Shown here one piece after another: positions 6,212 to 57,596 of a DNA stretch of 64,000 bases. The stretch is from Sulfurimonas sp. Its GTDB lineage: Bacteria; Campylobacterota; Campylobacteria; Campylobacterales; Sulfurimonadaceae. The notes beneath the pieces are model-generated. The model was given only the letters and a program-made list of their open reading frames with translations, made no database searches and was not told where the DNA came from. Positions within the stretch are counted from its first letter, which is position 1; every line of letters begins with the position of its first letter. The translations under genes were made by a program, and so were the position numbers. The DNA lies in the NCBI RefSeq assembly GCF_041583195.1, contig NZ_JBFHGL010000009.1:32481-96480 (forward strand), in the 5' to 3' direction.

Positions 6212-7521
6212 AAATACACTTTATTGGAATAGGCGGTATTGGAATTTCTGGTCTGGCGCAATATATGCGTTTTCAAGGTCATGAAGTAAGTGGATCTGAT
6301 ATAAGTGATACAAAAATAACTAAAAAATTACGCTCACTTGGAATAGAAGTTACTGTTCCTCACTCTGCAGATGCGATTAAAGACCAAGACTTGGTTATCC
6401 ACTCTGCAATAATTCGTCCTGATAATCCAGAGATTATAGCTGCCAATAAAAAAGGCATTAAAGTTCTAGCACGTCGCGAAGCATTAAAAGATATACTAGC
6501 TGATAGAAAAGTATACTCTGTAGCAGGTGCTCACGGGAAAAGTACTACTACGGCAATTTTAGCTTCTATTATGTGTGGTTCATCTATCATCGGTGCTGAA
6601 TCAAAATCATTCGGATCAAATGTTCGTTATGAAGAAGATAACAATGTCATGATCTTTGAAGCTGATGAGAGTGACGGAAGCTTTTTAAACTCAAATCCTT
6701 ACTGTTCAATAGTTATAAACGCAGAACCTGAACACATGGAATATTATGACTATAACTATGACAGATTTTATGATTCATATAAAACATTTATAAAATCAGC
6801 AAAATGTCGTGTATTAAATGCAGAAGATCCTTTTTTAAGTTCACTTGTACATGAGATAGATGCTGCATGGTTATACCCGAGTAAAGATATAACAAATATA
6901 GAATATGTTTTAAAAGATGATGAACCACATACTCGTTTTACTCTTAAAAATCTAGGAACTTTTGAAGTTTGGGGCTTTGGAAAACATATAGCGCTAGATG
7001 CATCGTTAGCTATTTTAGCTGCACACGAATCTATGGATATTGAAGAGATAAGAGAGAACCTTTTAAAATTTAAAGGGATCAAAAAACGTTTTGACATTGT
7101 TGGAAGTGAACTTAACAGTGTAATTATTGATGATTACGGTCATCATCCAACTGAGATCAAAGCGACATTCAACTCTGTAAAAGAGTATGCTATGCTTAAA
7201 GGTTTTAGTAAAATCACAGCTATTTGGCAACCACATAAATACTCTCGTACTATCGATAATTTAGAAGAGTTTACAAAATGTTTTGAAGGTGCAGATGAGC
7301 TTATTATCCTACCTGTTTGGTCAGCGGGTGAAGCTACACGCGATATAGACTTTATAAAAGAATTTTCAAAGTACAACCTTACAATGGCCGACAATATAAA
7401 ACGTGCGAACAACAACATAACTATAGTTAAAGACAAAGAAGATTTAAAAACTCTAAATGACGGTCTAATAATAGGTTTTGGTGCAGGTGATATTACCTAC
7501 CAAATTAGAGGTGCAGGTTAA
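6208..7521 (+). CDS. murC: UDP-N-acetylmuramate--L-alanine ligase
   Basis: IHFIGIGGIGISGLA, GAHGKSTTT, EADESD, DDYGHHPTEI, WQPHKYSR. Confidence 0.95.
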   Translation: MKIHFIGIGGIGISGLAQYMRFQGHEVSGSDISDTKITKKLRSLGIEVTVPHSADAIKDQDLVIHSAIIRPDNPEIIAANKKGIKVLARREALKDILADRKVYSVAGAHGKSTTTAILASIMCGSSIIGAESKSFGSNVRYEEDNNVMIFEADESDGSFLNSNPYCSIVINAEPEHMEYYDYNYDRFYDSYKTFIKSAKCRVLNAEDPFLSSLVHEIDAAWLYPSKDITNIEYVLKDDEPHTRFTLKNLGTFEVWGFGKHIALDASLAILAAHESMDIEEIRENLLKFKGIKKRFDIVGSELNSVIIDDYGHHPTEIKATFNSVKEYAMLKGFSKITAIWQPHKYSRTIDNLEEFTKCFEGADELIILPVWSAGEATRDIDFIKEFSKYNLTMADNIKRANNNITIVKDKEDLKTLNDGLIIGFGAGDITYQIRGAG

Positions 7522-9119
7522 TTATAACCTTCTATATCCTCTAATAATTTGTCATTATCTAAATGACTTAACACCCTTGTATCAAAAGCTTCGAAACTTT
7601 CCCCTGCTTCTCTTAAACTTTGATACATACGCAAAATTTTTTTCACTTTATATTTAGCATCACTCAAAGGTACAGATTTATATATAACTCTTGCTTCTTT
7701 TGCTTCAAAAGAAGCTTTTCCACCTAAAAGTATATGCACACCATAACATGTTTCCCCATTTTCATCTTTGGCTTTACATCCTTCAAAACCAATATCTGCA
7801 ATACCGTGAATTCCACATCCTTTTGGGCATGCAGACCAGTACATTCTTACCTTTGCGTCCTCTAGTGGTACCTCCTTATTTAAAAATTCTGCCATCTCTA
7901 TAGCATCTGGTTTATTTGGAATTACACCAAAAGCACATGTTGCAGTACCTGCACAAGCCACCTGATTTACAAAGTAAGTATTCTGATAATTTGAATATTT
8001 TGCATATATATCACTTTGTTTTAAAGCATATATATACATATCGCTACAAACTATGTAAAAACTTTGCTCAACAGATAGTCGTATTTGAGCCCCCATAGGT
8101 TTTGAAAGTTCTGCAACTCTTATAAGATCAGATCCTGAGAAAATACCAGATGGAATACTAAATAAAAGTGCAGACTTATTATCTTTGAGTTTAGTAGCTC
8201 CACTTTGAGGAACTTTATGTTCGTTCTCTAATAATAATTCTCCTGAATTATCTAGTTTTGCTTTAGTTGTTTTAATTATTGCATCTCTAAATGCTTCCAT
8301 TCCAACAGCCTCGATCAAAAAGTGCAGGCGGTTTTTGTTTCTGTTATCTCTAAAACCAAACTCTCTGAATAGATTTATTACAGATATATACACCTCTTTT
8401 ACATCATCTACATTAACGAATAGACCACTATCTTCTGCCTGCATACCAACTCGACCACCAAGGTAAAAATTAAAACCTATTTTGTCATCTTTTTTAGCTA
8501 GTATAAAACAGCAATCATGTCCAAAAATATTACAGTCATTTGTTTTTGTACCAAGTATTGCGGTATTAAACTTACGAGGAAGTACACTATTCCATTCCTC
8601 TTTTTTCAAAAATATACTTTGCAGATCTTCTATAATTGGCATACATTCAATTATAGAATCTTCGCTTAGCCCATCAAAAGAAGATGTGACTATATTTCTA
8701 AAGTTATCAACCCCTGTTTGAAATGTTGTTATCCCTACAGAATCTAATTTAGTTAAAACAGTATATAGGTTCTCAAACTTTATGAATCTCAGTTCTATTT
8801 GCTGACGTGTAGTTATATCTATGTAATCTTCACCAAACTCTTTAGATATCTCACCTATCATTAGAGCTTGTTCAATATTTAGCTGACCAGCTGGAATACG
8901 AACACGTATCATAAACTTGCCATCACCCTTATCGAAGAGTCCAAAGCATTTTAAAAAGTACTTGCTATCTTCATCTTTTAGATTCTCATAACCAGACTCA
9001 CAAATAGTTTTTAAATTCTTATAAATACTAGTAGGTGTTTTTAACTTTTTAATCTGCTCAATTTTATTTTCTTTTTTACTTCTAGCTTGATAAGCATCAT
9101 GCAATTTTTGCATTTTCAT
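7518..9119 (-). CDS. nirA: Ferredoxin-nitrite reductase (siroheme, 4Fe-4S)
   Basis: MIRVRIPAG, DITTRQQIE, LPRKFNTA, ACAGTATCAFG and SACPKGCG cysteine motifs; in nitrate cluster. Confidence 0.88.
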   Translation of the reverse strand: MKMQKLHDAYQARSKKENKIEQIKKLKTPTSIYKNLKTICESGYENLKDEDSKYFLKCFGLFDKGDGKFMIRVRIPAGQLNIEQALMIGEISKEFGEDYIDITTRQQIELRFIKFENLYTVLTKLDSVGITTFQTGVDNFRNIVTSSFDGLSEDSIIECMPIIEDLQSIFLKKEEWNSVLPRKFNTAILGTKTNDCNIFGHDCCFILAKKDDKIGFNFYLGGRVGMQAEDSGLFVNVDDVKEVYISVINLFREFGFRDNRNKNRLHFLIEAVGMEAFRDAIIKTTKAKLDNSGELLLENEHKVPQSGATKLKDNKSALLFSIPSGIFSGSDLIRVAELSKPMGAQIRLSVEQSFYIVCSDMYIYALKQSDIYAKYSNYQNTYFVNQVACAGTATCAFGVIPNKPDAIEMAEFLNKEVPLEDAKVRMYWSACPKGCGIHGIADIGFEGCKAKDENGETCYGVHILLGGKASFEAKEARVIYKSVPLSDAKYKVKKILRMYQSLREAGESFEAFDTRVLSHLDNDKLLEDIEGYN

Positions 9120-10389
9120 TCTCCATCTTTATTTCATACTGAGGTAATACACTATGTAAATTAACTACATCACCAAAAACAATTATTCCAGGTCTTGGTG
9201 CATCTAATGCTGCTTTTGGTAAATCTTTTAGAGTAGTTATTACTCTACTCTGATTTGGTCTTGAAGCATTAGAAATAATAGCCGTAGGCATATTTTCATC
9301 TATTCCCTCTTTAAGTGCATATTCGACTATCTCATCTGCACGTGATAGTCCCATAAGAACTATAGTCGTGTGATTCTTTATCTTCAGCAGATCTATCCAC
9401 TGAGTATTAATTCTGTTTCCAGCCAAATGAGCAGATACAATTGATAAGTTTGTTGCATATCCTCTTGCTGTTGGAGCAATACCAGCACTAAGAGGACCAG
9501 CAATAGCTGAAGATATACCAGGTATGACATCTACACGAATCTGCTCTTTTATCAAAGCCTGAGCTTCCTCTGCCCCACGACCAAATATATATGGATCACC
9601 TGCTTTTAATCTAGCTACAGTTAGACCTTTAGATGCATAATCTATAAGCATCTCATTTATCTTCTCTTGTTTGACACTGTGTGAACCCTTTTCTTTACCC
9701 ACATTTATTTTCATCGTGTCTTTTGGGATTATCTCTTTTATCTCTTCGCTTATTAAGTGGTCAATAAATACAACATCAGCCTCTTGTATAGTTTTATATG
9801 CTTTAATAGTAAGCAGATCAACATCACCTGTACCGCAACCTACAAGTGTTACTTTTCCAAGCATTTTATTTGCTTTTTGTTTTGCTTTTTTTATATCTAT
9901 TATCCCGCTATCACGCTCGTTTTTGAGTTCAGTGTTTAGATTCTCAAGCTCTTTTGGAAGAACTCTTTTTATCTTATCTCTTACAGACTTAGCAAGTGTC
10001 GGGCTTGCACCTGCTGATGATACTGCAACCTTTAATGCACCGTATTCTATAAGTGCTGCAAAGAAAAAATCACAAACTTCTGGGACATCTACACAGTTAT
10101 ATAAAAAATTCTTTTTGTGTTTATGTGCCAAAAGTCTATTCATTACATCTTTTGAACCAGTAGCATCAACTACGATACTATATGATTCAATATCTTCTAT
10201 CTCAAAATATTTTTGAGTCTTTGAAACCTTAATATTTTCGAATTCTTTGATATATTCAGAAGATACACATGAAAACTTCACTGAGTTTCTCTGCATTACC
10301 TCTGCTTTTTGTAGTGCTACTTTTCCACCCCCAATTAAGATAATTTTTTGGTTTTTTAAAACGATTGGTAATGTAGTATACTTCATCAT
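9097..10389 (-). CDS. cysG: Siroheme synthase (precorrin-2 dehydrogenase + uroporphyrinogen-III methyltransferase)
   Basis: N-terminal IGGGKVA..K, SSAGASPTLA; C-terminal LVGCGTGDVDLLT, RLKAGDPYIFGRGAEE. Confidence 0.9.
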   Translation of the reverse strand: MMKYTTLPIVLKNQKIILIGGGKVALQKAEVMQRNSVKFSCVSSEYIKEFENIKVSKTQKYFEIEDIESYSIVVDATGSKDVMNRLLAHKHKKNFLYNCVDVPEVCDFFFAALIEYGALKVAVSSAGASPTLAKSVRDKIKRVLPKELENLNTELKNERDSGIIDIKKAKQKANKMLGKVTLVGCGTGDVDLLTIKAYKTIQEADVVFIDHLISEEIKEIIPKDTMKINVGKEKGSHSVKQEKINEMLIDYASKGLTVARLKAGDPYIFGRGAEEAQALIKEQIRVDVIPGISSAIAGPLSAGIAPTARGYATNLSIVSAHLAGNRINTQWIDLLKIKNHTTIVLMGLSRADEIVEYALKEGIDENMPTAIISNASRPNQSRVITTLKDLPKAALDAPRPGIIVFGDVVNLHSVLPQYEIKMENENAKIA

Positions 10390-10401
10390 ATATCCTTCAA
10401 A

Positions 10402-11682
10402 TTAGATTCTTCCGCCAGCTTGAACACCCCAAGTAGTTCTCCATCTAGTCTTAACTAAAGAGATACCGCTAATAGCAACTATAACAACACCTGCAAATAT
10501 CATAAATCCAACTGTATAACCATCAAATGCACCTTTACTCCAACCAAGAGTTTTGATAAGGGCTGTACCACCAAGACCACCTGCTGCACCAATAATACCA
10601 GTCATAATACCAATGTCCTTACCAAAACGTTGAGGAACAAGTTGGAAAACTGCACCGTTTGCCATACCTAAGTTAGCCATGATTAAAAACAGAACTAGTA
10701 TAGCTACACCAAATGGAAGTGTTACAGAAGCATTTATTATTGCTAACACAGTTACAGTACCAAAGAAGATGTATAAAGATTTAACACCACCAAGTCTATC
10801 AGCAATCGCTCCACCAACCGGACGTAAAACAGCACCTGCAAATATACAAAGTGCTCCAAAGTAACCAGCTATAACTTTAACATTACTCTCATCTAAGATA
10901 TCTATACCAAATGCACTCATATCTGCTTGGTAAGTATTCATAAGATACACTTTCATATATCCTGCAAAACCAACGAATCCACCAAAACTTACAGCATAGA
11001 AAAGATTAAACCACCAAGTATCTTTATCTTTAAGAAGTTTTCCGTAATCTTTAAGTTTTTTAGGATTAGCAGTATAAACCTCAGCAGGAGCATTTTTAGC
11101 CAAGAATGCATAAGCAATCAATACAACTATAGCCATAGCTGCACCAACACCAAAAACAGATTCCCATCCCCATAACTCAGCGATTTTAGGAGCAAATAAG
11201 AAGTCAATTACAACACCTATGTTACCAGCCCCTGCTATACCTAAAACAACACCTTGTAGTTTAGGCGGATACCATTGACCAGCTTGAGGCAGAGCTACAG
11301 CAAAAGAAGCACCGGCAAAACCAAGTCCAAGAGCAACTAAAAGTAGTGTATCGTATGTGATGCTATTACCTTGTAAATAAGCAGTTAAAAGAGCAATAAT
11401 TACAACTGACTGAGCAAGCATCGCTGTAAGCTTAGCACCTAGTTTATCAACACCAAAACCAAGAAGTATTCTTAGAAGTGCACCTGAAAGTATAGGTAAA
11501 GATAGAAGTGTAGCTTTCTCACCTGCTGTCATAATATGTCCACCTAAAGCTAAAGCTTCAGATATTTCAGTACTTAATGGACCTAACATTGTCCAAACCA
11601 TAAAACTCATATCAAAATATAAAAAAGCCATGAACAATGTCGGTGTATGTCCTTGCCCTTTCAGATCTTTTAATCCTGCCAT
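10402..11682 (-). CDS. narK: Nitrate/nitrite MFS transporter (NarK/NasA family)
   Basis: Nitrate signature GFAGASFA and G.GNIG; LRPVGGAIADRLGG; GMANGAVFQLVPQRF; about 12 hydrophobic segments. Confidence 0.9.
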   Translation of the reverse strand: MAGLKDLKGQGHTPTLFMAFLYFDMSFMVWTMLGPLSTEISEALALGGHIMTAGEKATLLSLPILSGALLRILLGFGVDKLGAKLTAMLAQSVVIIALLTAYLQGNSITYDTLLLVALGLGFAGASFAVALPQAGQWYPPKLQGVVLGIAGAGNIGVVIDFLFAPKIAELWGWESVFGVGAAMAIVVLIAYAFLAKNAPAEVYTANPKKLKDYGKLLKDKDTWWFNLFYAVSFGGFVGFAGYMKVYLMNTYQADMSAFGIDILDESNVKVIAGYFGALCIFAGAVLRPVGGAIADRLGGVKSLYIFFGTVTVLAIINASVTLPFGVAILVLFLIMANLGMANGAVFQLVPQRFGKDIGIMTGIIGAAGGLGGTALIKTLGWSKGAFDGYTVGFMIFAGVVIVAISGISLVKTRWRTTWGVQAGGRI

Positions 11683-11696
11683 CTTTTTTCCTTTTA

Positions 11697-11715
11697 ACTT
11701 AATTTTACATTAAGT
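11697..11715. promoter_or_regulatory. Operator-like palindrome B (ACTTAAT-TTTAC-ATTAAGT)
   Basis: Perfect 7-bp arms between the narK -10 and its SD; core CTTAATTTTACAT recurs at 13482 and 13545. Confidence 0.55.
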
Positions 11716-11731
11716 AGTTATTGATGTCAGT

Positions 11732-11740
11732 ATTATAACA
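11732..11740 (-). promoter_or_regulatory. Extended -10 promoter (TG-T-TATAAT) of narK-cysG-nirA
   Basis: Minus strand TGTTATAAT about 50 nt upstream of the narK ATG. Confidence 0.65.
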
Positions 11741-11765: not shown

Positions 11766-11790
11766 TTATTGTATAAATTATATACAATAA
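11766..11790. promoter_or_regulatory. Operator-like palindrome A (TTATTGTATA-AATTA-TATACAATAA)
   Basis: Perfect 10-bp arms with 5-bp spacer; core TGTATA-N5-TATACA repeated at 13521-13537. Confidence 0.65.
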
Positions 11791-11807
11791 CTTTAAAATT
11801 ACATTAA

Positions 11808-13454
11808 CTATGACTTTAAATAGCCTATATATAATAGTAGTATCATATTTATAATTGCCATGCTTACAAAACCAACTCTGTAAAATGTTGTAGGGCTTCT
11901 CTGCATATAAGATATATTTTTTGCAAAATACGGTTCAACCTTACTTGGATTGTTTAGTTCAAAGTTCATCTCTGAATAATGCATATAGCGCTGTTCTTTA
12001 TCTATAGATATTGCGCGAAGTATTACACTGTCAAGCCAATCAGGAATATTTTTGTTATAAAAGCTAGGTTTTTTTGCATTTTTGAATATAGGAGATTGAA
12101 AAGGTTCTATCTCACCATATGGATATTTTCCGGTTAATGCATAATATAGTGTTACACCTATGGAAAATATTTCACTAGTCTCACTTATAGATTCGTTTTC
12201 AAACCTTTCAGGTGATAAAAAGCTAGGTGTACCTGCTCGTGAATTGTTTGAAAATATTTCTGTAATACTTCCAAAATCTATACTTTTATACTCAAGTGTA
12301 CCATCTTCATTTTTTAATACAATCACATTTGCAGGTTTTATATCTCCATGAACCAAATCATATTTTAAAAGATACTGTGACATATCTATAAGCATATTGG
12401 CAAGCTTTATACTCTCTTCAATAGATAGTTTTTTATCTTTTAAATACGTAGAGAGATCATCACCTTTAAAAAGTTGCATAACATAGTATCTATGAGTTCT
12501 GTTTTTTGGAATCACAGCCTTAGGAAAAAAGTCAGCTTTTAAACGCTTTGCATTCCAAGCCTCTTTTACGAACAGATCCAGTACACCCTCATCATCAATA
12601 CATTCACTTGGCGCATATTTTAATACATACTCTTTTGTCTTTTTTCTAACAAGCCAAGTCCTGTTGTTTTGAACTAGAGATCTTTTTAATTCATAACCAT
12701 CAATTACATCACATTCTTTTAGTGTCTGGTATATTAAAAGATCTTGATGTTTTAGTATATCTATATCATCTGCTTCTAATATATCTAGTACAATTGCAGT
12801 AGTATCGTCAGGTAGATCATTCTCAACTAATTTAGATGCTTTTTTAACAAGTGTATGTGCTCCAAGATTTATAGATGATTCTAATGCCTCATTATCCAAT
12901 ACATTATAAAGACCATCACTACAAAGTAATATCTTGTCACTTTTTTGCAGAGTATTTTCAAAATAATATGGTTCTACACTCTGTGATATACCTATGGCTT
13001 GAGTAAGTACATTTTCATATCCCTTTTCATTCATAGAATGGTCTTCTGATAGTTGGGTTAGTTTATTATCTCTTTGCAAATATACCCTGCTGTCTCCAAC
13101 ATTAGCTCCATATATGCGATTTCCTTCAATAGCAACTATTGTCAGAGTTGTAACAAGTTCACTGGATTCATAATTAATCTGTGATTCTTTATATAATATA
13201 TCATTTATAGATTTTATAAAAGTCAGTATACTTTTCTCAATAGTCCATGACTTTGGACGTATCTTAAAATTATTCATCATATAGTTTGTTACACGCTTAG
13301 CCGCTGCAGCACCTTCAGTTGCACTACCTACTCCATCACATACTATTGCTAAAGTTAGATTTCCAATAGTTTTAACATCGTAAAAATCATCACCAGTTAA
13401 CTCTTTCCCTTTTGCTAATGAAAATCCAGTTTTTCTAATTTGTTCTTTAGCCAT
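11808..13454 (-). CDS. Bifunctional PP2C phosphatase / Hanks-type Ser/Thr kinase with C-terminal membrane anchor
   Basis: PP2C motifs VCDGVG, NVGDSRVY, LCSDGL, DDTT; kinase motifs VLKY, HGDIKPAN, IDFG, GTPSFLSPE; ATG 13454 follows AAGG SD. Confidence 0.9.
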   Translation of the reverse strand: MAKEQIRKTGFSLAKGKELTGDDFYDVKTIGNLTLAIVCDGVGSATEGAAAAKRVTNYMMNNFKIRPKSWTIEKSILTFIKSINDILYKESQINYESSELVTTLTIVAIEGNRIYGANVGDSRVYLQRDNKLTQLSEDHSMNEKGYENVLTQAIGISQSVEPYYFENTLQKSDKILLCSDGLYNVLDNEALESSINLGAHTLVKKASKLVENDLPDDTTAIVLDILEADDIDILKHQDLLIYQTLKECDVIDGYELKRSLVQNNRTWLVRKKTKEYVLKYAPSECIDDEGVLDLFVKEAWNAKRLKADFFPKAVIPKNRTHRYYVMQLFKGDDLSTYLKDKKLSIEESIKLANMLIDMSQYLLKYDLVHGDIKPANVIVLKNEDGTLEYKSIDFGSITEIFSNNSRAGTPSFLSPERFENESISETSEIFSIGVTLYYALTGKYPYGEIEPFQSPIFKNAKKPSFYNKNIPDWLDSVILRAISIDKEQRYMHYSEMNFELNNPSKVEPYFAKNISYMQRSPTTFYRVGFVSMAIINMILLLYIGYLKS

Positions 13455-13520
13455 TAATAAACCTTGCACATGAAATATTTTCTTAATTTTACATTATATA
13501 GTATTTTTTAAGTCATAAAT

Positions 13521-13537
13521 TGTATAAATTCTATACA
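13521..13537. promoter_or_regulatory. Second copy of palindrome A (TGTATA-AATTC-TATACA)
   Basis: 16 of 17 positions identical to the core at 11770-11786; in the divergent kinase/narB intergenic region. Confidence 0.6.
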
Positions 13538-13565
13538 TATAGTACTTAATTTTACATAAACTTTG

Positions 13566-13574
13566 TGCTATACT
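13566..13574 (+). promoter_or_regulatory. Extended -10 promoter (TG-C-TATACT) of narB
   Basis: TGCTATACT about 30 nt upstream of GGAG SD and ATG 13603. Confidence 0.55.
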
Positions 13575-13602: not shown

Positions 13603-15582
13603 ATGATTAAGTCAGTGTGTGGATATTGTGGTGTTGGTTGTGGTATAGAATACGATGAACAAAAACTGATTGGAGATGTAACATACCCTACAAATGAAGG
13701 AAAACTCTGTTCAAAAGGTATTTCAGAGCTTATAAGTTTAGACACACCTTCAAGGCTTCTACGTCCAAAATTAAGAGAGAGTATTGATGAAGAGTATCGT
13801 ATATCAACATGGTATGAGACTATAAAAATCATAGCCGATAAAATAAAATCTACAGATAAAAATAAAATAGGCTTTTATCTCTCAGGTCAGCTTCTAACAG
13901 AAGATTACTATATTGCGAACAAACTCGGTAAAGGCTTTATAGGTACAAACAATGTAGACACAAACTCTCGTACATGTATGTCAAGTGCCGTAGTTGCATA
14001 TAAAAAAGCTATAGGTGCTGATTTTGTACCTCTAAGAATGAATGATATATTCAAGTCTGACTTATTGATTCTTGCAGGTGCAAATACAGCTGAGGCTCAT
14101 GTAGTTTTTCATAACCAGATAAAAAAAGCGAAAAAACAAGGTCTTAAAATAGTAGTAATTGACCCTCGCTATACTGAAACAGCAAAACTTGCTGATATTC
14201 ACTTAAGTATAAAAGCAGGAAGCGATATTGATTTTTTTAACCTAGTATCTAAAAAACTAATAGATGAAGAACTATACAATAAAGAATATGTTGAAGAAAA
14301 TGTAAATAACTTTGAACTTTTAAAAAATAAATTCAAGCGTGCTCCAGTTACGAAGATGCTAAAAAGAACGGGACTTTCGCAAGAGCAGTTTGATCAATTT
14401 TTTGATCTGTATATATCTAGTGAAAATATAATTACAGCTTGGACTATGGGGCTCAATCAATCTGTTCAAGGGGTTGATAAAAATTTAGCACTCTTAAACA
14501 CGCACCTACTAACAGGAAAAATATTTAAAGAAGGAAATGGTCCACTTAGTCTTACAGGTCAGCCAAATGCCATGGGTGGCCGTGAAGTCGGTGGACTATC
14601 TACCATGCTTGCAGTGCATCTCGGCTTTGATAAAGAGAGTATTGAAAAAGTATCTAAGTTTTGGAAGACAGACAAGATAGACAACAAACCTGGTCTTACT
14701 GCTACACAGATGATGGAAGCAAAACTGGACGTACTTATAATCGCTCATACTGACCCTGTATATCATCTACCAAACAGAAACAAGGTAGAAGATTTTATAA
14801 GCAAGATACCGTTTGTAGTTGAGATAAATGCATATGAAAACTCCGAGAGTTCAAAATATGCACACGTAAGACTTCCTGCTGCACCTTGGGGTGAGAAAGA
14901 AGGTACTCAGACAAATCTTGATAGAACTATTACAAAACAAGAGAGGCTTACTCGTCGTTCGATTGACTGTAAACCTGATTGGGAGATATTTCAACTTATA
15001 GCACAAGAGCTTGGTTTCAACGATGCATTTAACTTTAAAAATCCTAAAGAGATATTTCAAGAATATCAAGAGATGACGAAATTAAATGATCATATGGATA
15101 TACATAAACTTGACTATGATGACATCTCTTTTAAACCATTCATTTGGGGTGAAGATATAAAAACATATCTTACACCTGATAAAAAAGGAAATCTGTTTTA
15201 TGTGGAAAACAAACTCCTGAGTGAAAAAACAAACTTGGAATATCCATATATACTTTTAACAGGTAGGACACGTGATCAGTGGCATACAGGTACAAAAACA
15301 AATCTTCCTACAACTCTTTTAAAGTTCAAAGAATTGAACTTCTGTGAGATGAACCCAAATGATGCTAAACAACTCGGACTTGAAGATGGCGATGAAATTC
15401 AAGTTAGTTCAAGACGTGGTAGTATAAAGACAAAGGTACTTATTACAGAGGATATTTTAGAGAAAAATATCTTTATACCAATAAGTAATAGGGACATAAA
15501 CTATCTTACTAATGATCTTTTAGATAAAGATTCACTAGAGCCTGATTATAACCATTCTGCCGTAAAAATTGAAAAATTATAA
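13603..15582 (+). CDS. narB: Assimilatory nitrate reductase catalytic subunit (molybdopterin, 4Fe-4S)
   Basis: CGYCGVGC...LCSKG, YLSGQLLTEDYY, NSRTCMSSA, GQPNAMGGREVGG, TGRTRDQWHTGT. Confidence 0.9.
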   Translation: MIKSVCGYCGVGCGIEYDEQKLIGDVTYPTNEGKLCSKGISELISLDTPSRLLRPKLRESIDEEYRISTWYETIKIIADKIKSTDKNKIGFYLSGQLLTEDYYIANKLGKGFIGTNNVDTNSRTCMSSAVVAYKKAIGADFVPLRMNDIFKSDLLILAGANTAEAHVVFHNQIKKAKKQGLKIVVIDPRYTETAKLADIHLSIKAGSDIDFFNLVSKKLIDEELYNKEYVEENVNNFELLKNKFKRAPVTKMLKRTGLSQEQFDQFFDLYISSENIITAWTMGLNQSVQGVDKNLALLNTHLLTGKIFKEGNGPLSLTGQPNAMGGREVGGLSTMLAVHLGFDKESIEKVSKFWKTDKIDNKPGLTATQMMEAKLDVLIIAHTDPVYHLPNRNKVEDFISKIPFVVEINAYENSESSKYAHVRLPAAPWGEKEGTQTNLDRTITKQERLTRRSIDCKPDWEIFQLIAQELGFNDAFNFKNPKEIFQEYQEMTKLNDHMDIHKLDYDDISFKPFIWGEDIKTYLTPDKKGNLFYVENKLLSEKTNLEYPYILLTGRTRDQWHTGTKTNLPTTLLKFKELNFCEMNPNDAKQLGLEDGDEIQVSSRRGSIKTKVLITEDILEKNIFIPISNRDINYLTNDLLDKDSLEPDYNHSAVKIEKL

Positions 15583-15603: not shown

Positions 15604-16326
15604 ATGAAAGAAAAAAAGATAGTTATATTCTCTGGTGCCGGTATTAGTGCCGAGAGTGGAATCAAAACCTTCAGAGATGCAGACGGGCTGTGGGAAAACC
15701 ACAGTATTGAAGAGATCTGCAATCAATATACTTGGGAAAAAAACTACGAACAGGTTCATAAGTTTTATAACCAAAGAAGAGTTCAATTAGCTGATGTTGA
15801 ACCAAATCTAGCCCACGAAATAGTAGCCCAAATCAAAGAAAAATACCAAGACGACTGTATAGTGATCACACAAAATGTAGATGATATGTTTGAGCGTGCA
15901 GGATGCCGTGATGTTATCCATGTCCATGGAGAGCTTACCAAGATGCACTGCATGAGTTGTAACAATGTGTTTGATATTGGATACAAAGAGTTTACTATTG
16001 GTGAGCAGTGCCCTAAATGCGGAAATTCTCATATAAAACCTTATGTTGTTTTCTTTGGTGGTCAGGCTCCAAAATATATGGATATGTACTCAGCGTTTGA
16101 ATATCTGCAAAATGAAGATTCAATAGCAGTTGTTATAGGTACACTTGGCAATGTTATTCAGATAAGTGCAAATTTAGAACTTATGGATTGCAAAAAAATA
16201 CTAAATAACCTCGAAATATCACCATATATAGATGATTCTCAGTTTGATAGAGTATACTACGAAAATGCAACTTCGGCTATTGAAAAAATAGAAGCCGACA
16301 TTGAAGAGTTTTGGGAGATAGAATAA
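15604..16326 (+). CDS. cobB: NAD-dependent protein deacylase (sirtuin)
   Basis: SGAGISAESGIKTFRD, TQNVDD..ERAG, HVHG, two CxxC zinc motifs, PYVVFFG. Confidence 0.9.
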   Translation: MKEKKIVIFSGAGISAESGIKTFRDADGLWENHSIEEICNQYTWEKNYEQVHKFYNQRRVQLADVEPNLAHEIVAQIKEKYQDDCIVITQNVDDMFERAGCRDVIHVHGELTKMHCMSCNNVFDIGYKEFTIGEQCPKCGNSHIKPYVVFFGGQAPKYMDMYSAFEYLQNEDSIAVVIGTLGNVIQISANLELMDCKKILNNLEISPYIDDSQFDRVYYENATSAIEKIEADIEEFWEIE

Positions 16327-16327
16327 T

Positions 16328-17260
16328 ATGCAAATAATTTTAGTGCTAGTGGCGGCAATTTTAGGACTAACTTACGGTTACAATACAGAAGGTCTGCAGT
16401 TTACGTCTAAAATATGTTTATTTGCAGGTGTAACTCTAATCATGCCTACACTCTTTAATGTTAAACTAAAAGATATTAAACTGATTTTAACGCATAAAAA
16501 AATAATTTTTAAAAGTTTGGTAGTAAACTTTATAGCTCTTCCTGCACTTGCACTAGCAATAGGTCTTGCAACAAAAGACTTCGGTATAGCTGCTGGTGTC
16601 TTTGCACTCTCTGTACTAAGTGGTGGCGGTATGGTTATGTACTGGGTTAAAAAAACAGATTCAAATACCTCTTTAGGTTTCATACTTCTTTTTATAAACA
16701 TTATATTCATCTCTTTATCTCTTTTAATGCTTCACCTGTTTGCTGTATATACAGAGGGTTATTTTGGAGAGTTTTATGCAGATTCAAACAACTCTCTTAC
16801 AGGTTTTGCCAACGCTGTAATCTTGTACCTTATAGTTGTTCCGTTAATTCTGAGCAGAATTCTTATTTTTATGACCCCTGTAGTAAACTTTATAAATAAG
16901 TATCGCCCGATTATCAGCAATGTAAGTATATTTATAATTATTACGTTTCTTTTTGCATTGCAAAACTCTCAACTACTTTTTGAAGTTTATGACTTTGAAC
17001 CGGAACTTATAGCTATGTCATTTTATGCTATATCTGCATTTTACATAGGAAACTTTCTAATTGCTAAGTTTACTTTTGACATTTCAGACCCAGAGGAGCG
17101 TTCGGCATTTTGGTTTACGACAACACGCTATATAACTCTAGCACTTATCATTGCTAGTTTTTCTATAGCTTCATTTGGTGTAACTATGCTTATACCTATT
17201 ATGATGTCGTATCTTATACAGATACCTTTTGCAATATTTTATGCAAAATATGTAAAATAA
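16328..17260 (+). CDS. BASS/Acr3-superfamily secondary transporter
   Basis: About 10 hydrophobic segments; MPTLF, SLVVNFIALPALA and GMVMYW align with SBF/Acr3 patterns. Confidence 0.6.
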   Translation: MQIILVLVAAILGLTYGYNTEGLQFTSKICLFAGVTLIMPTLFNVKLKDIKLILTHKKIIFKSLVVNFIALPALALAIGLATKDFGIAAGVFALSVLSGGGMVMYWVKKTDSNTSLGFILLFINIIFISLSLLMLHLFAVYTEGYFGEFYADSNNSLTGFANAVILYLIVVPLILSRILIFMTPVVNFINKYRPIISNVSIFIIITFLFALQNSQLLFEVYDFEPELIAMSFYAISAFYIGNFLIAKFTFDISDPEERSAFWFTTTRYITLALIIASFSIASFGVTMLIPIMMSYLIQIPFAIFYAKYVK

Positions 17261-37501: not shown

Positions 37502-39840
37502 TCTTTTGCCTTTGATGTTTGATTTATATGTGAGTTTTTAATAATTGATGAAAACTCCTTTGTATATGTATTACGTTCAGACTCATCCATAAAAAAATCG
37601 AATCGTCCTATATCTCTTTGCAAATTCATAAGATCTTTTAAAAACTGATAAATAGCACTTGCAGATTTTTGATCAGCTAAAATAGTCTCATTTTGAGCTA
37701 CAAGTAGATCTGTCATGGAACGAGTCCCTTTTGCATAATTATTTTGTACAAGTTCAAAACTTTTCTTTGCCGACTTTGCTGCCTGTTGTGTAAGTTTTAT
37801 GGAAGGAAAACTAGAGCGGACAGTATGAAGGTCATATCGGATTTGTCGTTCTATTGAGTTTTTTTCTAGCTCCTTTGATAATTCTAACTGCTGTAATTTA
37901 AGTTGCGAATATGAGGAACGTGCACTTCTAGCACTTCCTTCATATAAAGGGAGGGAAAGAACAACACTTGCGCTCCAATTAGTTTGATCTTCTAAATTAA
38001 TAGTTGATGATGGATCTCGTTTTTCATCAAAAACTCTGGACATCTCGCCAACAAATTCAATATTAGGTGAGAAGTAAGCTCTTCGGTCCGACGTAAGCTT
38101 GCGCTTTTGTGCAGCTATATAACCGTTATACATCTGTAATTCAGATGCACTTTTTAAGCCCTCTTCAACAAAATAATCATTAATTAACTTAATATCATTT
38201 TCATTTGTAATTAAAGATAGTAGTTCTTTGTTACTAACAAGCAAATAAGGATCGTTTAACGTTGCAGGCACAGTTTTTATTCTCTTTGTTATAGGACGAT
38301 GTAATATATAGTTAAGTCCATCTTGTGCTTGTTGGACAGCTACTTTTGCCTGATGTACACGTTGTTTTGAAGTAGCAATTCTGCTCTCCCAATGATACAT
38401 ATCTGATAGGTCGGAAGTTCCCGCTTCAACACGAGCTTGTGCCATCTCTAAATTAGACTTGGTAAGTTTTAAATTTTCTTTTTCAACTTTTAATTGCGTT
38501 TGGGCTATAAGTATATTTAAAAACATTGTACTTGCCTGTTCCACAATATCCATCTCCAAAGTACGTTGTTGCGCCACTGTGGCAGCTTTCACTTTTTTTT
38601 GTATCTCTAAAGCAGCCAAAGCTTTTTCTGAAAAAAGTATCTGATGAAGTTTAATAGCACCAGTAGAGCTTTTCTCTGCATAAAAACCGTTTTTTACATA
38701 AATATTATCACTATTTTGCTGTGTATATGAAAGATCAGCTCTAATTTGAGGAAGTAATACTGAGCGAACTTCTTTGATATTTTCATCTTCTAGTTTTATT
38801 CCCAACTTTCCTGCAATAATATTAAGATTGCTTTTTATTGCAAGTTTTGCAACATCGCTTAAACTAAATGAATCTTCAATATCAGCTTCATCGTCTTCTA
38901 TTATTTTTGCTTTGCTTAGAAGGTTAAAAGAAGGATAAACACCAATCTTGTTTGTAGTTTTTAAATTAATTATTAGTTGATGTTTATCTTCAAATTTAGT
39001 AGGCAGGTTTTCAGGACTTTTACCTCGTAATACAGATTGAATATTTAGTGCTAATTGTCTAACTCTTCTAGATATATTCTCAGTCGATACTGATGACATC
39101 ATTATCCCATCATAAACACTTAGCTCATCTCCAAAAGAGTAACTAGGAAGTTGCTTTATCACTAAAGCGTCTATTAAATTTTGTTTAGATGTACTACTTA
39201 AAGATGGAAGCGGTGTAAGCATAACGGCCTGAGTGTCTTTAGGCAATTGTTCAAGTGGATTTTTAGAGCCGCTTATAATTACATTAAGTTCTATACCTTT
39301 ATTTATAGTAGATTTTTTCAAACCATTCATTGCGATAGGAAGCGAAGATGAGAGTTTTTCATCTACAATCAATGTCATTTTCTTAAAAGTTGCAACGTCC
39401 AAAAAGTTTTTAATTGCAGTATCAAAAGGTGTACTAAAAGCAAGATAGTTCATATTTTTTTTAGTAACTTGTAATTGCTCTTCAAATAGTAATAAGTAGG
39501 GTGCTAAAGTAGGTTTATTTAGGTCTTTTGCTTTAAAAGCAGTATTAGCAGACACAAGACCAATCGTTATGGTCATATCAATATTTGGATCATTTTGTAT
39601 GTTTTGTAAAGTATCTTGCGCTTTAGAAACTGACCAGTCAATGATAATAGGTTTCATAAAACTAACTTTAAATTCACCCTGTGTCATAACTTCCAACTCT
39701 GTTGAGATTTCATCTTTTATCTTTTTATACTGAGAAGTTTGTGCATCCATTACAATTGCAATATTTACATCCGAATAAAGTGGTGCAGACCATAAGCTTA
39801 TAGTTGTTAAAGCTATAAATAAAAATAGTTTAATCTTCAT
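37498..39840 (-). CDS. TolC-family outer membrane channel with ~300 aa N-terminal periplasmic-binding-like domain
   Basis: 780 aa; C-terminal OEP repeats (LLPQIRA, LSLPLYEGSAR, GTRSMTDLLVAQ); N-terminal domain resembles ABC substrate-binding proteins. Confidence 0.8.
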   Translation of the reverse strand: MKIKLFLFIALTTISLWSAPLYSDVNIAIVMDAQTSQYKKIKDEISTELEVMTQGEFKVSFMKPIIIDWSVSKAQDTLQNIQNDPNIDMTITIGLVSANTAFKAKDLNKPTLAPYLLLFEEQLQVTKKNMNYLAFSTPFDTAIKNFLDVATFKKMTLIVDEKLSSSLPIAMNGLKKSTINKGIELNVIISGSKNPLEQLPKDTQAVMLTPLPSLSSTSKQNLIDALVIKQLPSYSFGDELSVYDGIMMSSVSTENISRRVRQLALNIQSVLRGKSPENLPTKFEDKHQLIINLKTTNKIGVYPSFNLLSKAKIIEDDEADIEDSFSLSDVAKLAIKSNLNIIAGKLGIKLEDENIKEVRSVLLPQIRADLSYTQQNSDNIYVKNGFYAEKSSTGAIKLHQILFSEKALAALEIQKKVKAATVAQQRTLEMDIVEQASTMFLNILIAQTQLKVEKENLKLTKSNLEMAQARVEAGTSDLSDMYHWESRIATSKQRVHQAKVAVQQAQDGLNYILHRPITKRIKTVPATLNDPYLLVSNKELLSLITNENDIKLINDYFVEEGLKSASELQMYNGYIAAQKRKLTSDRRAYFSPNIEFVGEMSRVFDEKRDPSSTINLEDQTNWSASVVLSLPLYEGSARSARSSYSQLKLQQLELSKELEKNSIERQIRYDLHTVRSSFPSIKLTQQAAKSAKKSFELVQNNYAKGTRSMTDLLVAQNETILADQKSASAIYQFLKDLMNLQRDIGRFDFFMDESERNTYTKEFSSIIKNSHINQTSKAKE

Positions 39841-54375: not shown

Positions 54376-55494
54376 TTATTTATTTGCTAAACCATTTAAC
54401 GTAGCAATAATCTCATCCATTTTATCACTAACATTATTTATCTCATCAGAAACATCATTAATCTCTTTTGCATTAGCATTTAATGCCATAGAACTATCGG
54501 AGATAGACTGAATCAATACGTTTGTTGTAGCTGAAGTCTCAGCAAGAGATTTTTGTGTACGTTCAGCAAGCTTTCTAACTTCATCGGCAACTACCGCAAA
54601 TCCACGACCGTGTTCACCGGCACGTGCAGCTTCAATAGCAGCATTTAATGCAAGTAAGTTTGTTTGGTCTGCTATATCACCTATAGTAGCTAATATCTCT
54701 TTAGTTTCATTTGCATTACTAACTAATGTTTGAAGATTATCAACCAGTTCATTTTCACTATCAGACACACCATATACCCTATCAACCGTATGATTAACCA
54801 TATCTTTTAACTCTATAATAGTAGTATTTGTAATCTCATCAATAGTTGCATTTAACTCATTTGAAGTCTCAAGTATATGATTTTTACTTTGTTCATTTTG
54901 CTGTTCCATATTTTGCAGAGCTTCACCTAATGAGTTAATATTACTTAAAAGTTCAGCCATTTTAGCTTCAACTTTCACTTCACTTCTAGCGCCAAAATCA
55001 CCTTCAGCAAACCTTTTTAGTGTAGCTATTGCATTATCTAAATTTCCCTCTGCAGAGTCCATTAAGTTATTCATGGAATTTCTTAGAGCATGTACATAAG
55101 GAGTCTTACTGTCTGCAACAACTCTACAACTCATATGACCTTTTGAAACCTTATCTGCAAGAAGAGTCATTTCACCTGCAACACGAGTATCTGATAAAAC
55201 TGCTTCTTGATAAGTCATCACTATTTTATTGAAGTTTTTTTCAGATTCATTTGTCGTTTCTTTATTTAACGAAATTTTATTTCTCTTAAACTCCATTAAT
55301 TCGATTAACTCGATTCTTTTTTGATCAATATAAGCCAATGAATCACTTCCACTTTGGTTATATAAAACTACAACTAATATAAAAGTCATAATAAGTAAAA
55401 CTGCAGGTACTATGTTTGATTCCATTAAAAACATGGAAACAAGAGTAATGGTAAATAATAAAGTGATTATTATATTTTTTTGAAAGTTACTCAT
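54376..55494 (-). CDS. Methyl-accepting chemotaxis protein (TM hairpin, no periplasmic sensor, short signalling domain)
   Basis: [40 protein letters not shown]; two adjacent N-terminal TM helices. Confidence 0.92.
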
Positions 55495-55501
55495 CGGCTT
55501 T

Positions 55502-55885
55502 CTAACTCATTGTCTTATACAGTGATTCTGCATCTTCAATCTCTTCTTTTGAAGGCTTCCTTCTGCATGACATATAAGTTGTTTCACCTGTATGCGGATC
55601 TTTCATAGGATATACGGTTGCAAACACCCAGTAAAAATCACCACTTTTAGTTTTGTTTTTTACGTAACCTGTCCACACTTTGCCCTGATTAACCACATCC
55701 CAAAGACTTTTAAATGCATCTTTTGGCATATCGGGGTGTCTTACAATACTATGAGGTTTTCCTATCAATTCACTTATAGTGTAGTCTGCTATTTTGCAAA
55801 AATCATCATTTGCAAATATTATCTTTCCTCTAGCATCTGTTTGAGATACTAAAAAATCGTCACTTTTAAGTACATATTCTGCCAT
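55502..55885 (-). CDS. Stand-alone Aer-type PAS domain protein (CetB-like)
   Basis: [49 protein letters not shown]. Confidence 0.88.
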
Positions 55886-55988: not shown

Positions 55989-56024
55989 TGCCTAAAATTG
56001 TGATAAAAATATCACAAAAAGTGA

Positions 56025-57596
56025 CTATTTTTTAACCACGATAAATGATTCCGGCTTTTTAGGTTTATATTTTGGCATGCTCTGACCTATACTAGAGTTT
56101 ATATAAGTTGGATCAGCTAATACAAATTTTTTAGAACCTGCTTTTACATAATCACCATCCATTGGGATATAAAGTGCAGTTGCCATATGGTCTTTATATT
56201 TTACACCAACTACGTTTACTCCAAAAAGTTTTTTAACAAGTTTTGAGAAAAGCACCGCTCTATCTTCACAGTCAGACTTATCATAATAAAGTGTTTCCTG
56301 TGCGAACATAACTTTTTCACGTCCAAATTGTTGATTATCCATTTCGTACTTAAACGATTTTTGCACAAAATGAAGCACAAAATTTAAAGCTTCACTCATC
56401 TTCTTTCCATCAACATGTTTTTTGATAGCTTCAGCTAACTGAGCAAACGTAGCATCTTCTAAAGGTGCATTGAAAAAAGTTTCATAATCAGCTTGAGGAT
56501 AAGTACCCATAAAATCAATCAAATTTTTATTGTAGTTTATTGAGACTTTAAATTCATCTCCTAAACCTTTAAAGCCTAACTCTTTTGACTTTAAATTTTC
56601 TGCCAAACTTGGAAGTTTGTCTAGTGATAAGTCTAGAGGTTTATCACTTCCAGGATAATTTTGTTCATAAGAATATAATCTACCTACACTCCCTTTAGCA
56701 TAGTTTGATACTACATAGAATTTGTTTTTACCAAAACTATAGTTTGGAGTCGAGTATATTATTTTGTCTGCAAAATGCAGAAGAACAACATGTTTATTAG
56801 CTAAACCTACCTTAACTGCATAACCTAATTTATTAAATATAAACCATGCAAGTAGCTTTGAATTATCGTTATCTGAATAAACTTTTTTTGATAACTCATT
56901 TACTAATAGATATACCCCCCAGTCATTTAAACTCAACTCTTTTTGAAGTTCTTGTACATCTTCAATTAAGCCTTTGTACTCACTAGAAGCTACTTTATCA
57001 AAATAGTTTGCAATACCTGTTTGATTTGTAGGATAAAAGTTCGCATCTTTTAAACCTTGTGAAATATTAAAACCTACAGATGTACCAAAAAAATCAAAGT
57101 TAATATCTTTTTTTACAACTTCTACAGGCTTTTCAACTTCAGGAGTCGGAATTACAATAACCTTTTCAATGATTTTTTCTTTTGGCTGCTCAATAGTTTT
57201 TTCAACAACCTTAGGTTTTGGTTGAATTACAGGTTTTGGTTCAACTTTTGGCATAGGCATTGGTTGAACTTTTTTTACAACCTTAGGAACTTTAATATGA
57301 ACAAGAGGACCGACTTTTTCAATCTCTTTTGGTTTTGCAGCGGGAATTTTTTCAGGCTTTGGTTCTTCATAAACCTTTACACCTTTATGAGCGTTATATG
57401 CTTTCCATTGTGCTTTTAAAAACTTGTTAAAAGCTACGTCTCTTTCATCTTTATATTTTTTAAAACTTTCAGCTTGAGAACGTTTAAAGTCCTCAAATGA
57501 ACCAGCACTTAAAAGTGATGAACTTAGTGCTAGTGTTAAACTAAAAAGGCCAAACTGCTTGAATAATTTGTGTACCCCATCCTTGTTCTGTTGCAC
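56025..57596 (-). CDS. Exported protein with Pro/Lys-rich linker and transglutaminase-like Cys-His-Asp domain
   Basis: Signal-like segment, PK/PE-rich region, SDCEDRA, KDHMAT, LADPTY; only in-frame start overlaps flgH by 56 nt. Confidence 0.7.
   Translation of the reverse strand: MQQNKDGVHKLFKQFGLFSLTLALSSSLLSAGSFEDFKRSQAESFKKYKDERDVAFNKFLKAQWKAYNAHKGVKVYEEPKPEKIPAAKPKEIEKVGPLVHIKVPKVVKKVQPMPMPKVEPKPVIQPKPKVVEKTIEQPKEKIIEKVIVIPTPEVEKPVEVVKKDINFDFFGTSVGFNISQGLKDANFYPTNQTGIANYFDKVASSEYKGLIEDVQELQKELSLNDWGVYLLVNELSKKVYSDNDNSKLLAWFIFNKLGYAVKVGLANKHVVLLHFADKIIYSTPNYSFGKNKFYVVSNYAKGSVGRLYSYEQNYPGSDKPLDLSLDKLPSLAENLKSKELGFKGLGDEFKVSINYNKNLIDFMGTYPQADYETFFNAPLEDATFAQLAEAIKKHVDGKKMSEALNFVLHFVQKSFKYEMDNQQFGREKVMFAQETLYYDKSDCEDRAVLFSKLVKKLFGVNVVGVKYKDHMATALYIPMDGDYVKAGSKKFVLADPTYINSSIGQSMPKYKPKKPESFIVVKK

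Follow-up and report, generated by a model that had tools for sequence, protein, structure and literature searches.

Introduction

In Proteobacteria the NtrB/NtrC pair (NRII/NRI) controls glnA, amtB/glnK, nitrate assimilation and nifA; NtrC has a Fis-type C-terminal helix-turn-helix (HTH), its site TGCACC-N5-GGTGCA is a 17-bp dyad that starts with TG and ends with CA, and it works from distant tandem enhancers at sigma-54 promoters of the -24/-12 type. In the NifL-NifA system a PAS- and kinase-like protein governs an enhancer-binding-type activator by contact, under the influence of PII. In Bacillus, 17-bp TnrA/GlnR boxes (TGT-N11-ACA) stand before glnA, amtB and the nitrate-assimilation (nas) genes; activation takes place from around -50, and a single box serves divergent nas promoters. 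Here we analyze the palindrome TGTATA-N5-TATACA, which occurs twice at the nas locus of a Sulfurimonas sp., within a stretch of 64,000 nucleotides (C9:32481-96480 of the 2.38-Mb genome, 33% G+C; hereafter the window), and which, as judged from sequence, is very probably the operator of a nitrogen regulon.

Regulators of this general class can act without sigma-54. NtrC of Caulobacter crescentus and of Rhodobacter capsulatus has no GAFTGA, the sigma-54 contact loop, and acts at sigma-70 promoters, including glnBA (PMC10274813). VpsR of Vibrio cholerae, an atypical bacterial enhancer-binding protein (bEBP) with neither GAFTGA nor an intact Walker B, activates the sigma-70 polymerase from a proximal site at -31..-53 (PMC6158489). 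The Fis binding motif is GNTYAAAWTTTRANC, with the 15-bp core G-N2-Y-A-W5-T-R-N2-C (PMC6907758). We found no published description of nitrogen sensing in these Campylobacterales, nor of an NtrC-type control of the kind proposed below, free of phosphorylation and sigma-54. Sulfurimonas, Sulfurovum, Arcobacter-type and other members of this kinship in the Campylobacterales dominate sulfidic, vent and oxic-anoxic interface habitats, where they drive carbon, sulfur and nitrogen turnover.

Results

Two palindromes at the nas locus

The two copies (Table 1) are identical at 16 of 17 positions, and the core of copy 1 is embedded in perfect 10-bp arms (TTATTGTATA/TATACAATAA, 11766-11790). Between the edge of the palindrome and the -10 hexamer there are 32 nt at narK and 31 nt at narB; counting the first T of each hexamer as -12, the sites span -45..-61 and -44..-60, respectively, and the dyad centre would fall near -52/-53 if transcription starts about 7 nt past the hexamer. 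An earlier note on this DNA had reported these two cores, their near-identity, the long arms of copy 1, both hexamers and both spans, and its coordinates and letters hold throughout.

When up to one mismatch was allowed, three matches were obtained in the window versus 0.37 expected, and none of 100 shuffles reached three. The third match, at 38116, is inside an open reading frame (ORF), has GC within its spacer, and looks like chance. Exact TGTATA-N5-TATACA occurs six times in the genome, three times between genes and three times inside ORFs; the intergenic copies are the two nas sites and one before rpoN, with spacers that are at least 4/5 A/T, and those within ORFs have spacers with one or two G/C.

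The dyad precedes nitrogen genes in this genome

We scanned the genome with the pattern TG[TA][AT]TA-N5-TA[AT][TA]CA. There were 20 matches, and the spacer was at least 4/5 A/T in all 11 that are intergenic and included a G or C in most of the nine within ORFs. For each of the 11 top-scoring intergenic matches, one flank shows a -10-like hexamer at 31-32 nt; the genes on that flank are narB, narK, glnA1, three amtB, rpoN, an OprD-like porin, a 298-aa membrane protein and a Cache/CheW protein. At the same spacing there are weaker sites before glnA2, glnD (PII uridylyltransferase), nifA and a gene of the PAS-GGDEF-EAL type. Pfam confirms GlnA, AmtB, GlnD, NifA, RpoN and the CheW/Cache protein. 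On direct reading of the 12 regulon upstream regions no -35 hexamer was seen, nor the GG-N10-GC element of sigma-54 promoters (-24/-12), the only GG there being that of the ribosome-binding site. The proposal of the earlier note, a site for a nitrogen or nitrate activator in Campylobacterota, gains support from this placement before nitrogen genes here and in relatives, and the data support a role of the dyad as a general nitrogen operator rather than a nitrate-specific one.

Some details of these loci may be recorded. Two of the three amtB copies have an N-terminus in common and interrupt the assembly; its breaks, at contig ends C2/C11 and C10/C13, lie in duplicated nitrogen genes (the amtB pair and a pair of nearly identical 112-aa genes, similar in size to PII genes). 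Of the 112-aa genes one precedes glnA1 and the other amtB1, and in each case the dyad is between the 112-aa gene and the gene downstream. The dyad before rpoN (C10:7235-7251) follows a run of small ORFs, two of which by our reading have Cys-rich ferredoxin-like sequence; its -10, TACAAT, is just 5 nt from the annotated ATG, so that either the rpoN mRNA is nearly leaderless, or the rpoN start codon is further downstream. A possible further operator in the window, TGACTATTTTTTAACCA, is weaker (-10-like TAATAT at 33 nt) and is located upstream of a PAS gene (55502-55885, minus strand) and a gene for a methyl-accepting chemotaxis protein (MCP; 54376-55494, minus strand). Together with the site before the Cache/CheW gene (contig C19) it hints at a nitrogen regulon that includes chemotaxis receptors.

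Conservation across relatives

Among congeners narB orthologues are 71-82% identical. The orthologous narB sites of five congeners (G018, G011, G004, G022, G020) are 64-69 nt from the narB ATG, and in G023 a site is found 64 nt before nirA. In four of these congeners (all except G004) and in G125, a member of another family, a single palindrome has divergent -10 hexamers at 31-32 nt on both sides and lies between narB and a nitrate ABC transporter gene (nrtA); the site is symmetric, and one copy can therefore serve two divergent promoters. G125 has sites before nifA, narB/nrtA, glnA and amtB. The site is kept in orthologous nas promoters, which the note had named as a check on its reading, and at glnA it is kept across the order.

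For the order we used 151 Campylobacterales genomes (families and genera numbered f and g below), and the same set served for all phyletic counts. The generalized 17-bp dyad is TGnnTA-W5-TAnnCA, and the reversed pattern was the control for enrichment: in many families matches to the strict pattern far outnumbered those to the control, for instance 10 vs 1 in the Sulfurimonas sp. genome, 22 vs 5 in G125 and 10 vs 0 in G084. The generalized dyad stands 59-99 nt from the glnA ATG in 44 genomes from about 17 families, and 42 of these 44 promoters have TAnnnT 31-33 nt downstream of the site. The middle letters of the glnA half-sites vary (TGATTA, TGTATA, TGCTTA, TGCCTA, TGGTTA). A glnA site was not seen in the genomes checked of f26 (five), f12 (four) and f25 (two), in f3, or in genus g10 of f10; the dyad is absent from host-associated families.

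Motif class and the search for the regulator

All copies have the spacing GTA-N9-TAC, not the GTA-N8-TAC of an NtcA box. The earlier note had set the palindrome apart from NtcA, NifA and TnrA/GlnR boxes; this is correct for the letters, but it overlooked the length and outline of NtrC and Fis sites. Within the dyad, the central 15 bp (G-nn-T-A-W5-T-A-nn-C) agree with the Fis motif (PMC6907758), and the 44 glnA sites and the sites of the Sulfurimonas sp. genome match its 15-bp core, in a site set that was partly collected with G, TA, TA and C fixed. Given its likeness in length and outline to NtrC and Fis sites, the regulator of the dyad was sought among genes for proteins with a Fis-type HTH. 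Only three genes in the genome encode an HTH_8 (Fis-type HTH) domain: NifA, a 295-aa receiver + HTH_8 protein, and a 259-aa protein that we call B. Only B tracks the motif.

NifA was set aside as limited to nitrogen fixers; the 295-aa protein is taken up in the Discussion together with a MerR-family protein. The neighbors of regulon genes (ThiC, Mrp, PyrH, PhoU-like and similar) include no DNA-binding protein, and the gene most often upstream of glnA elsewhere encodes a PHP histidinol phosphatase and no regulator. XRE-cupin and ribbon-helix-helix-like genes by sites in G125 are both without an orthologue in the Sulfurimonas sp. genome. BLAST with approximate E. coli query sequences found neither Lrp/AsnC nor a full-length NtrC. 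Apart from NifA, the sole enhancer-binding protein is one of 381 aa with receiver and AAA+ regions, FlgR-like by our reading, in which no HTH_8 was detected.

Protein B, a candidate regulator related to NtrC

B, whose gene is outside the window, combines a degenerate AAA+ domain with an NtrC-like DNA-binding end. Pfam places HTH_8 at residues 223-256, at the C-terminus (27.4 bits vs a cut-off of 22), and the best NCBIfam match is TIGR01818, the ntrC C-terminal region (E 8.8e-12), followed by Fis. Pfam finds no Response_reg domain in B, and orthologues from 16 families begin straight at the AAA+ region; in 21 such orthologues from the 16 families neither a receiver domain nor a GAFTGA loop nor a Walker B pair (hhhhDE) is seen. 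The 21 keep GExGxGK (Walker A-like), R(I/V)(I/V)AT, PPLxxRxED and LG(L/I)NRNTLRKK; the recognition helix NRNTLRKK, kept across all 16 families, resembles the C-terminus of Fis. The AlphaFold model of B matches bEBP AAA+ folds, with VpsR at the top followed by NtrC1, NtrC4, PspF and NtrX. Public annotations of B homologues, the closest of which are in Sulfurimonas, read "Fis family transcriptional regulator" or "NtrC family response regulator". Most likely B descends from NtrC and has retained the NtrC/Fis-type HTH together with an AAA+ core, now degenerate; the receiver, the acidic pair of Walker B and the GAFTGA loop would have been lost.

B is single-copy in 114 of the 151 genomes. Matches to the strict pattern versus the control were 327 vs 54 in these 114 genomes (6-fold) and 17 vs 31 in the 37 without B (Mann-Whitney p 1.6e-11, without phylogenetic correction). 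B was found in every genome that has a glnA site, and none of the B-less genomes checked has such a site; within family f10 the genus g10 has neither B nor the dyad, and four sister genera have both. In the seven B genomes without a strict glnA site, there were three one-mismatch sites with the right -10 spacing, one doubtful one-mismatch site, one site with two mismatches, and two cases with none. The B gene adjoins amtB and/or a PII gene in seven genomes from five families (G171, G125, G149, G084, G036, G037, G040); in Sulfurimonas and eight other families it is between slyD and fabD. A phylum-wide search for B, in a sample of mostly host-associated species of the same order, added nothing, and no covariation was seen by eye between the recognition helix of B and the half-site letters across families. 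We consider it fairly probable that B binds the dyad, and the two statements taken together, that the dyad would be the nitrogen operator and B its regulator, are likewise probable to us on the comparative data.

Several points weigh against assigning the dyad to B in this way. The Sigma54_activat match to B covers residues 23-62 only and, at 18.8 bits, is under the Pfam cut-off of 20.2; model confidence is moderate, with a predicted local distance difference test (pLDDT) score of 70.7 for B and 78.7 for its putative partner X. Two genomes (G032, G030) have B and no site before glnA, and the slyD-B-fabD arrangement of Sulfurimonas is a housekeeping cluster without an operator nearby. The phyletic profile of B is that expected of any nitrogen-network gene, so that co-occurrence alone does not single it out; the regulators profiled were B, the 295-aa protein and the MerR-family protein, in a genome that also has four Crp/Fnr paralogues and about 25 response regulators. 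Some entries of the glnA site table came from a pattern in which 8 of the 17 positions were fixed, which makes the invariance of these positions partly circular. The 151 genomes are related, the p value above overstates their independence, and about five independent losses were counted.

Protein X, a putative partner of B

Directly after B in many families is a gene for a protein of about 230 aa (227 aa here), which we call X. X was found in 113 of the 151 genomes, a set that differs from that of B by one genome, which is 91% complete. Pfam gives only a weak PAS match; the structure model combines a PAS fold with a histidine-kinase catalytic-domain fold, and its matches are PAS-kinases, with the NtrB C-terminal domain (1r62) at rank 4. 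The X model has no helical DHp hairpin (phospho-His) between the PAS and catalytic folds, a domain that NtrB has, and phosphotransfer is therefore impossible. JGI labels a few X homologues "nitrogen-specific signal transduction histidine kinase". From the model X looks like a remnant of NtrB, and B and X look like what is left of NtrC and NtrB with every phosphotransfer part gone.

Discussion

Proposed mechanism

We propose that the dyad is the operator of a global nitrogen regulon in free-living Campylobacterales. A dimer of B would occupy one 17-bp dyad, TGnnTA-(A/T)5-TAnnCA, with half-sites TGTATA or TGATTA in this genome, and from about -52 would aid the housekeeping sigma-70 polymerase at promoters with no -35 and a good -10, in many cases an extended one. 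The nitrogen status that GlnD and PII sense would be passed to B by X, through protein contacts and not by phosphotransfer: X would read the state of PII and, in a direct interaction much like that of NifL with NifA, would hold B or let it go. This PII-X-B path is a tentative suggestion, and it is equally tentatively that we put forward the whole, in which free-living Campylobacterales would run their entire nitrogen-assimilation regulon by a phosphorylation-free NtrB/NtrC descendant, a partner-switch module in which a single dimer at about -52 would recruit the sigma-70 polymerase.

Of the known systems NtrB/NtrC is like the proposed one in its target genes, in the C-terminal HTH of its activator and in the length and ends of its dyad, and GlnD and PII are present in the Sulfurimonas sp. 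genome. It differs in that B has no receiver, GAFTGA or Walker B and X no DHp/His domain, and in that the promoters here are of -10 type, not -24/-12, with one proximal site near -52 in place of distant tandem enhancers. Since NtrC of Caulobacter and Rhodobacter and VpsR act at sigma-70 promoters, they are a precedent for the proposed action of B. The former are nitrogen regulators without the sigma-54 contact loop (PMC10274813); unlike B they are full length, have a receiver and an NtrB kinase, and need phosphorylation. VpsR, the top structural match of B, has like it an atypical bEBP fold and, as is proposed for B, acts from a proximal site (PMC6158489); unlike B it has a receiver domain, responds to cyclic di-GMP and controls biofilm genes. 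What sets the proposed system apart from both is the loss of receiver and kinase His domain, and the single proximal site at rigid spacing. With Fis of Enterobacteria there are two likenesses, the fit of the inner 15 bp (PMC6907758) and the B helix; the genome has no small Fis gene, however, and the sites form a specific regulon and not a nucleoid-wide pattern. NifL-NifA is our working model for X and B, with the difference that NifA is a full sigma-54 activator. TnrA/GlnR differ in half-site (TGTNA vs TGnnTA here) and in belonging to the MerR family, and the sole GlnR-like MerR gene of this genome fails the phyletic test (see below).

If the proposal is true, this may be an example of a two-component system that lost phosphotransfer yet kept its regulatory job. 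B and X offer a concrete candidate regulator pair, and an operator with a fixed layout makes the regulon (glnA, amtB, nas, nifA, rpoN, porins, chemotaxis receptors) readable in any genome or metagenome bin.

Alternative explanations

The alternative that survives best, which we hold to be rather unlikely, is that the dyad is a nitrogen operator bound by another factor, with B unrelated to it: a Crp/Fnr paralogue (NtcA-like), a NarL/OmpR-type response regulator, or a member of an unrecognised family. There are four Crp/Fnr paralogues and many response regulators in the genome, TGTA-N9-TACA is one base longer than the NtcA box, and any nitrogen-network gene would show a phyletic match such as that of B. 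CRP-family sites, however, are evenly spaced, whereas a 17-bp dyad with an odd, A/T-rich centre is typical of a Fis-type HTH; none of those genes is known beside amtB or PII, unlike B (five families); and B is homologous to the regulator of the same gene set in other Proteobacteria.

It is also conceivable, and in our view distinctly unlikely, that the bound protein represses under nitrogen excess in the manner of GlnR. Sequence does not reveal the direction of control, and on the PP2C-kinase side of operator 2 a -10-like TATAAT is just 22 nt away, a non-canonical spacing. Yet the dyad is outside the footprint of the polymerase core at the top 11 intergenic sites of this genome, with its edge 31-32 nt upstream of the -10, and likewise at 42 of the 44 glnA promoters, a few of which have 33 nt; promoters without a -35, as here, are the classic activator-dependent layout. 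Activation rather than repression is, on this promoter layout, the quite likely direction of control.

Three further explanations have very little left to recommend them. A TnrA/GlnR-like MerR protein of 112 aa (C10:8517-8852) would suit a 17-bp TGT-N11-ACA dyad near -52, as at TnrA-activated promoters; its best true PDB match is GlnR (7tec, E 0.002), and its gene is convergent with rpoN and near glnA and nif genes; but it is missing from four congeners (G018, G011, G004, G022; 98-99% complete) that all keep the narB dyad, and it occurs in just 13 of 151 genomes, scattered over several families and mostly outside Sulfurimonas, which refutes it as the general regulator and makes its binding to the dyad highly improbable. 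We would guess that this gene travels with nif clusters, and it may be a nif-linked regulator. Binding by the 295-aa protein (C8:57857-58744), an HP1021-like orphan regulator which has a weak Fis-type HTH, is contradicted by the phyletic test, as it is in 138 of 151 genomes, including the dyad-less f26, f12, f10 g10 and f25 g29/g52, and is absent from f16, a family with B; we give it next to no weight. Just as implausible is a reading of the palindromes as RNA hairpins, with a terminator behind the PP2C-kinase gene, or as AT-rich palindromes that arose by chance: copy 1 does follow a stop codon and can form an 11-bp stem (-9.6 kcal/mol, z -3.7), but the fold of copy 2 is weak (-3.1 kcal/mol) and not better than that of shuffled sequences, a terminator search found no terminator-like site, and across genomes only the outline TG..TA/TA..CA is kept while the pairing letters vary, which together with the fixed distance to the -10 speaks for constraint at the level of DNA.

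Features of the locus and minor observations

Table 1. Coordinates of the features discussed, in window positions except for B and X.
Feature	Position	Strand	Remarks
Putative operator, copy 1	11766..11790 (core TGTATAAATTATATACA at 11770-11786)	none	would serve the narK-cysG-nirA promoter; between PP2C-kinase stop and narK
Putative operator, copy 2 (TGTATAAATTCTATACA)	13521..13537	none	divergent region between PP2C-kinase gene and narB
Possible further operator (TGACTATTTTTTAACCA)	56022..56038	none	weaker; -10-like TAATAT at 33 nt
Predicted -10 of narK promoter, TATAAT	11732..11737	-	placed by the fixed 31-32 nt spacing of regulon promoters
Predicted -10 of narB promoter, TATACT	13569..13574	+	extended TGnTATAAT at this place in relatives
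nirA, ferredoxin-type nitrite reductase	7518-9119	-	Pfam
cysG, sirohaem synthase	9097-10389	-	Pfam
narK, MFS nitrate/nitrite transporter	10402-11682	-	Pfam
Target operon narK-cysG-nirA	7518..11682	-	Pfam
PP2C phosphatase / Ser-Thr kinase fusion gene	11808..13469	-	Pfam; between both operators
narB, assimilatory molybdopterin nitrate reductase	13603..15582	+	Pfam
13-mer, copy 1	11698..11710	+	narK leader, sense ATGTAAAATTAAG
13-mer, copy 2	13482..13494	+	leader of PP2C-kinase gene
13-mer, copy 3	13545..13557	+	between operator 2 and narB -10, antisense to narB
Protein B, 259 aa	C2:270301-271080		outside the window; degenerate AAA+ domain, NtrC-like DNA-binding end
Protein X, 227 aa	C3:132084-132767		PAS and kinase-catalytic-domain fold

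The gene between the two operators encodes a PP2C phosphatase/Ser-Thr kinase fusion, and its true ATG is probably at 13454. The fusion is kept at 55-71% identity in the nas clusters of relatives, where it comes after the nitrate ABC transporter genes. Closely 3' of narB and on the same strand are genes for a Sir2-family deacetylase and a sodium/bile-acid-family transporter (15604-17260), which may be co-transcribed with narB.

A 13-mer, CTTAATTTTACAT, has four exact copies in the genome, three of them in the nas intergenic regions. As ATGTAAAATTAAG it adjoins the ribosome-binding site in the leaders of narK and of the PP2C-kinase gene. It is kept between the dyad and the narB -10 in G018, G011, G022 and G020, and in G125 it is between the dyad and the -10 on the nrtA side. 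Unlike the dyad, the 13-mer is a nas-specific element; it may give a nitrate/nitrite-specific input, or it may be a leader element. The narK leader also holds, downstream of the regulated -10, a second promoter-like sequence of classical form, CTGACA-17-TAAAAT (11702-11730, minus strand), the -10 of which belongs to the 13-mer.

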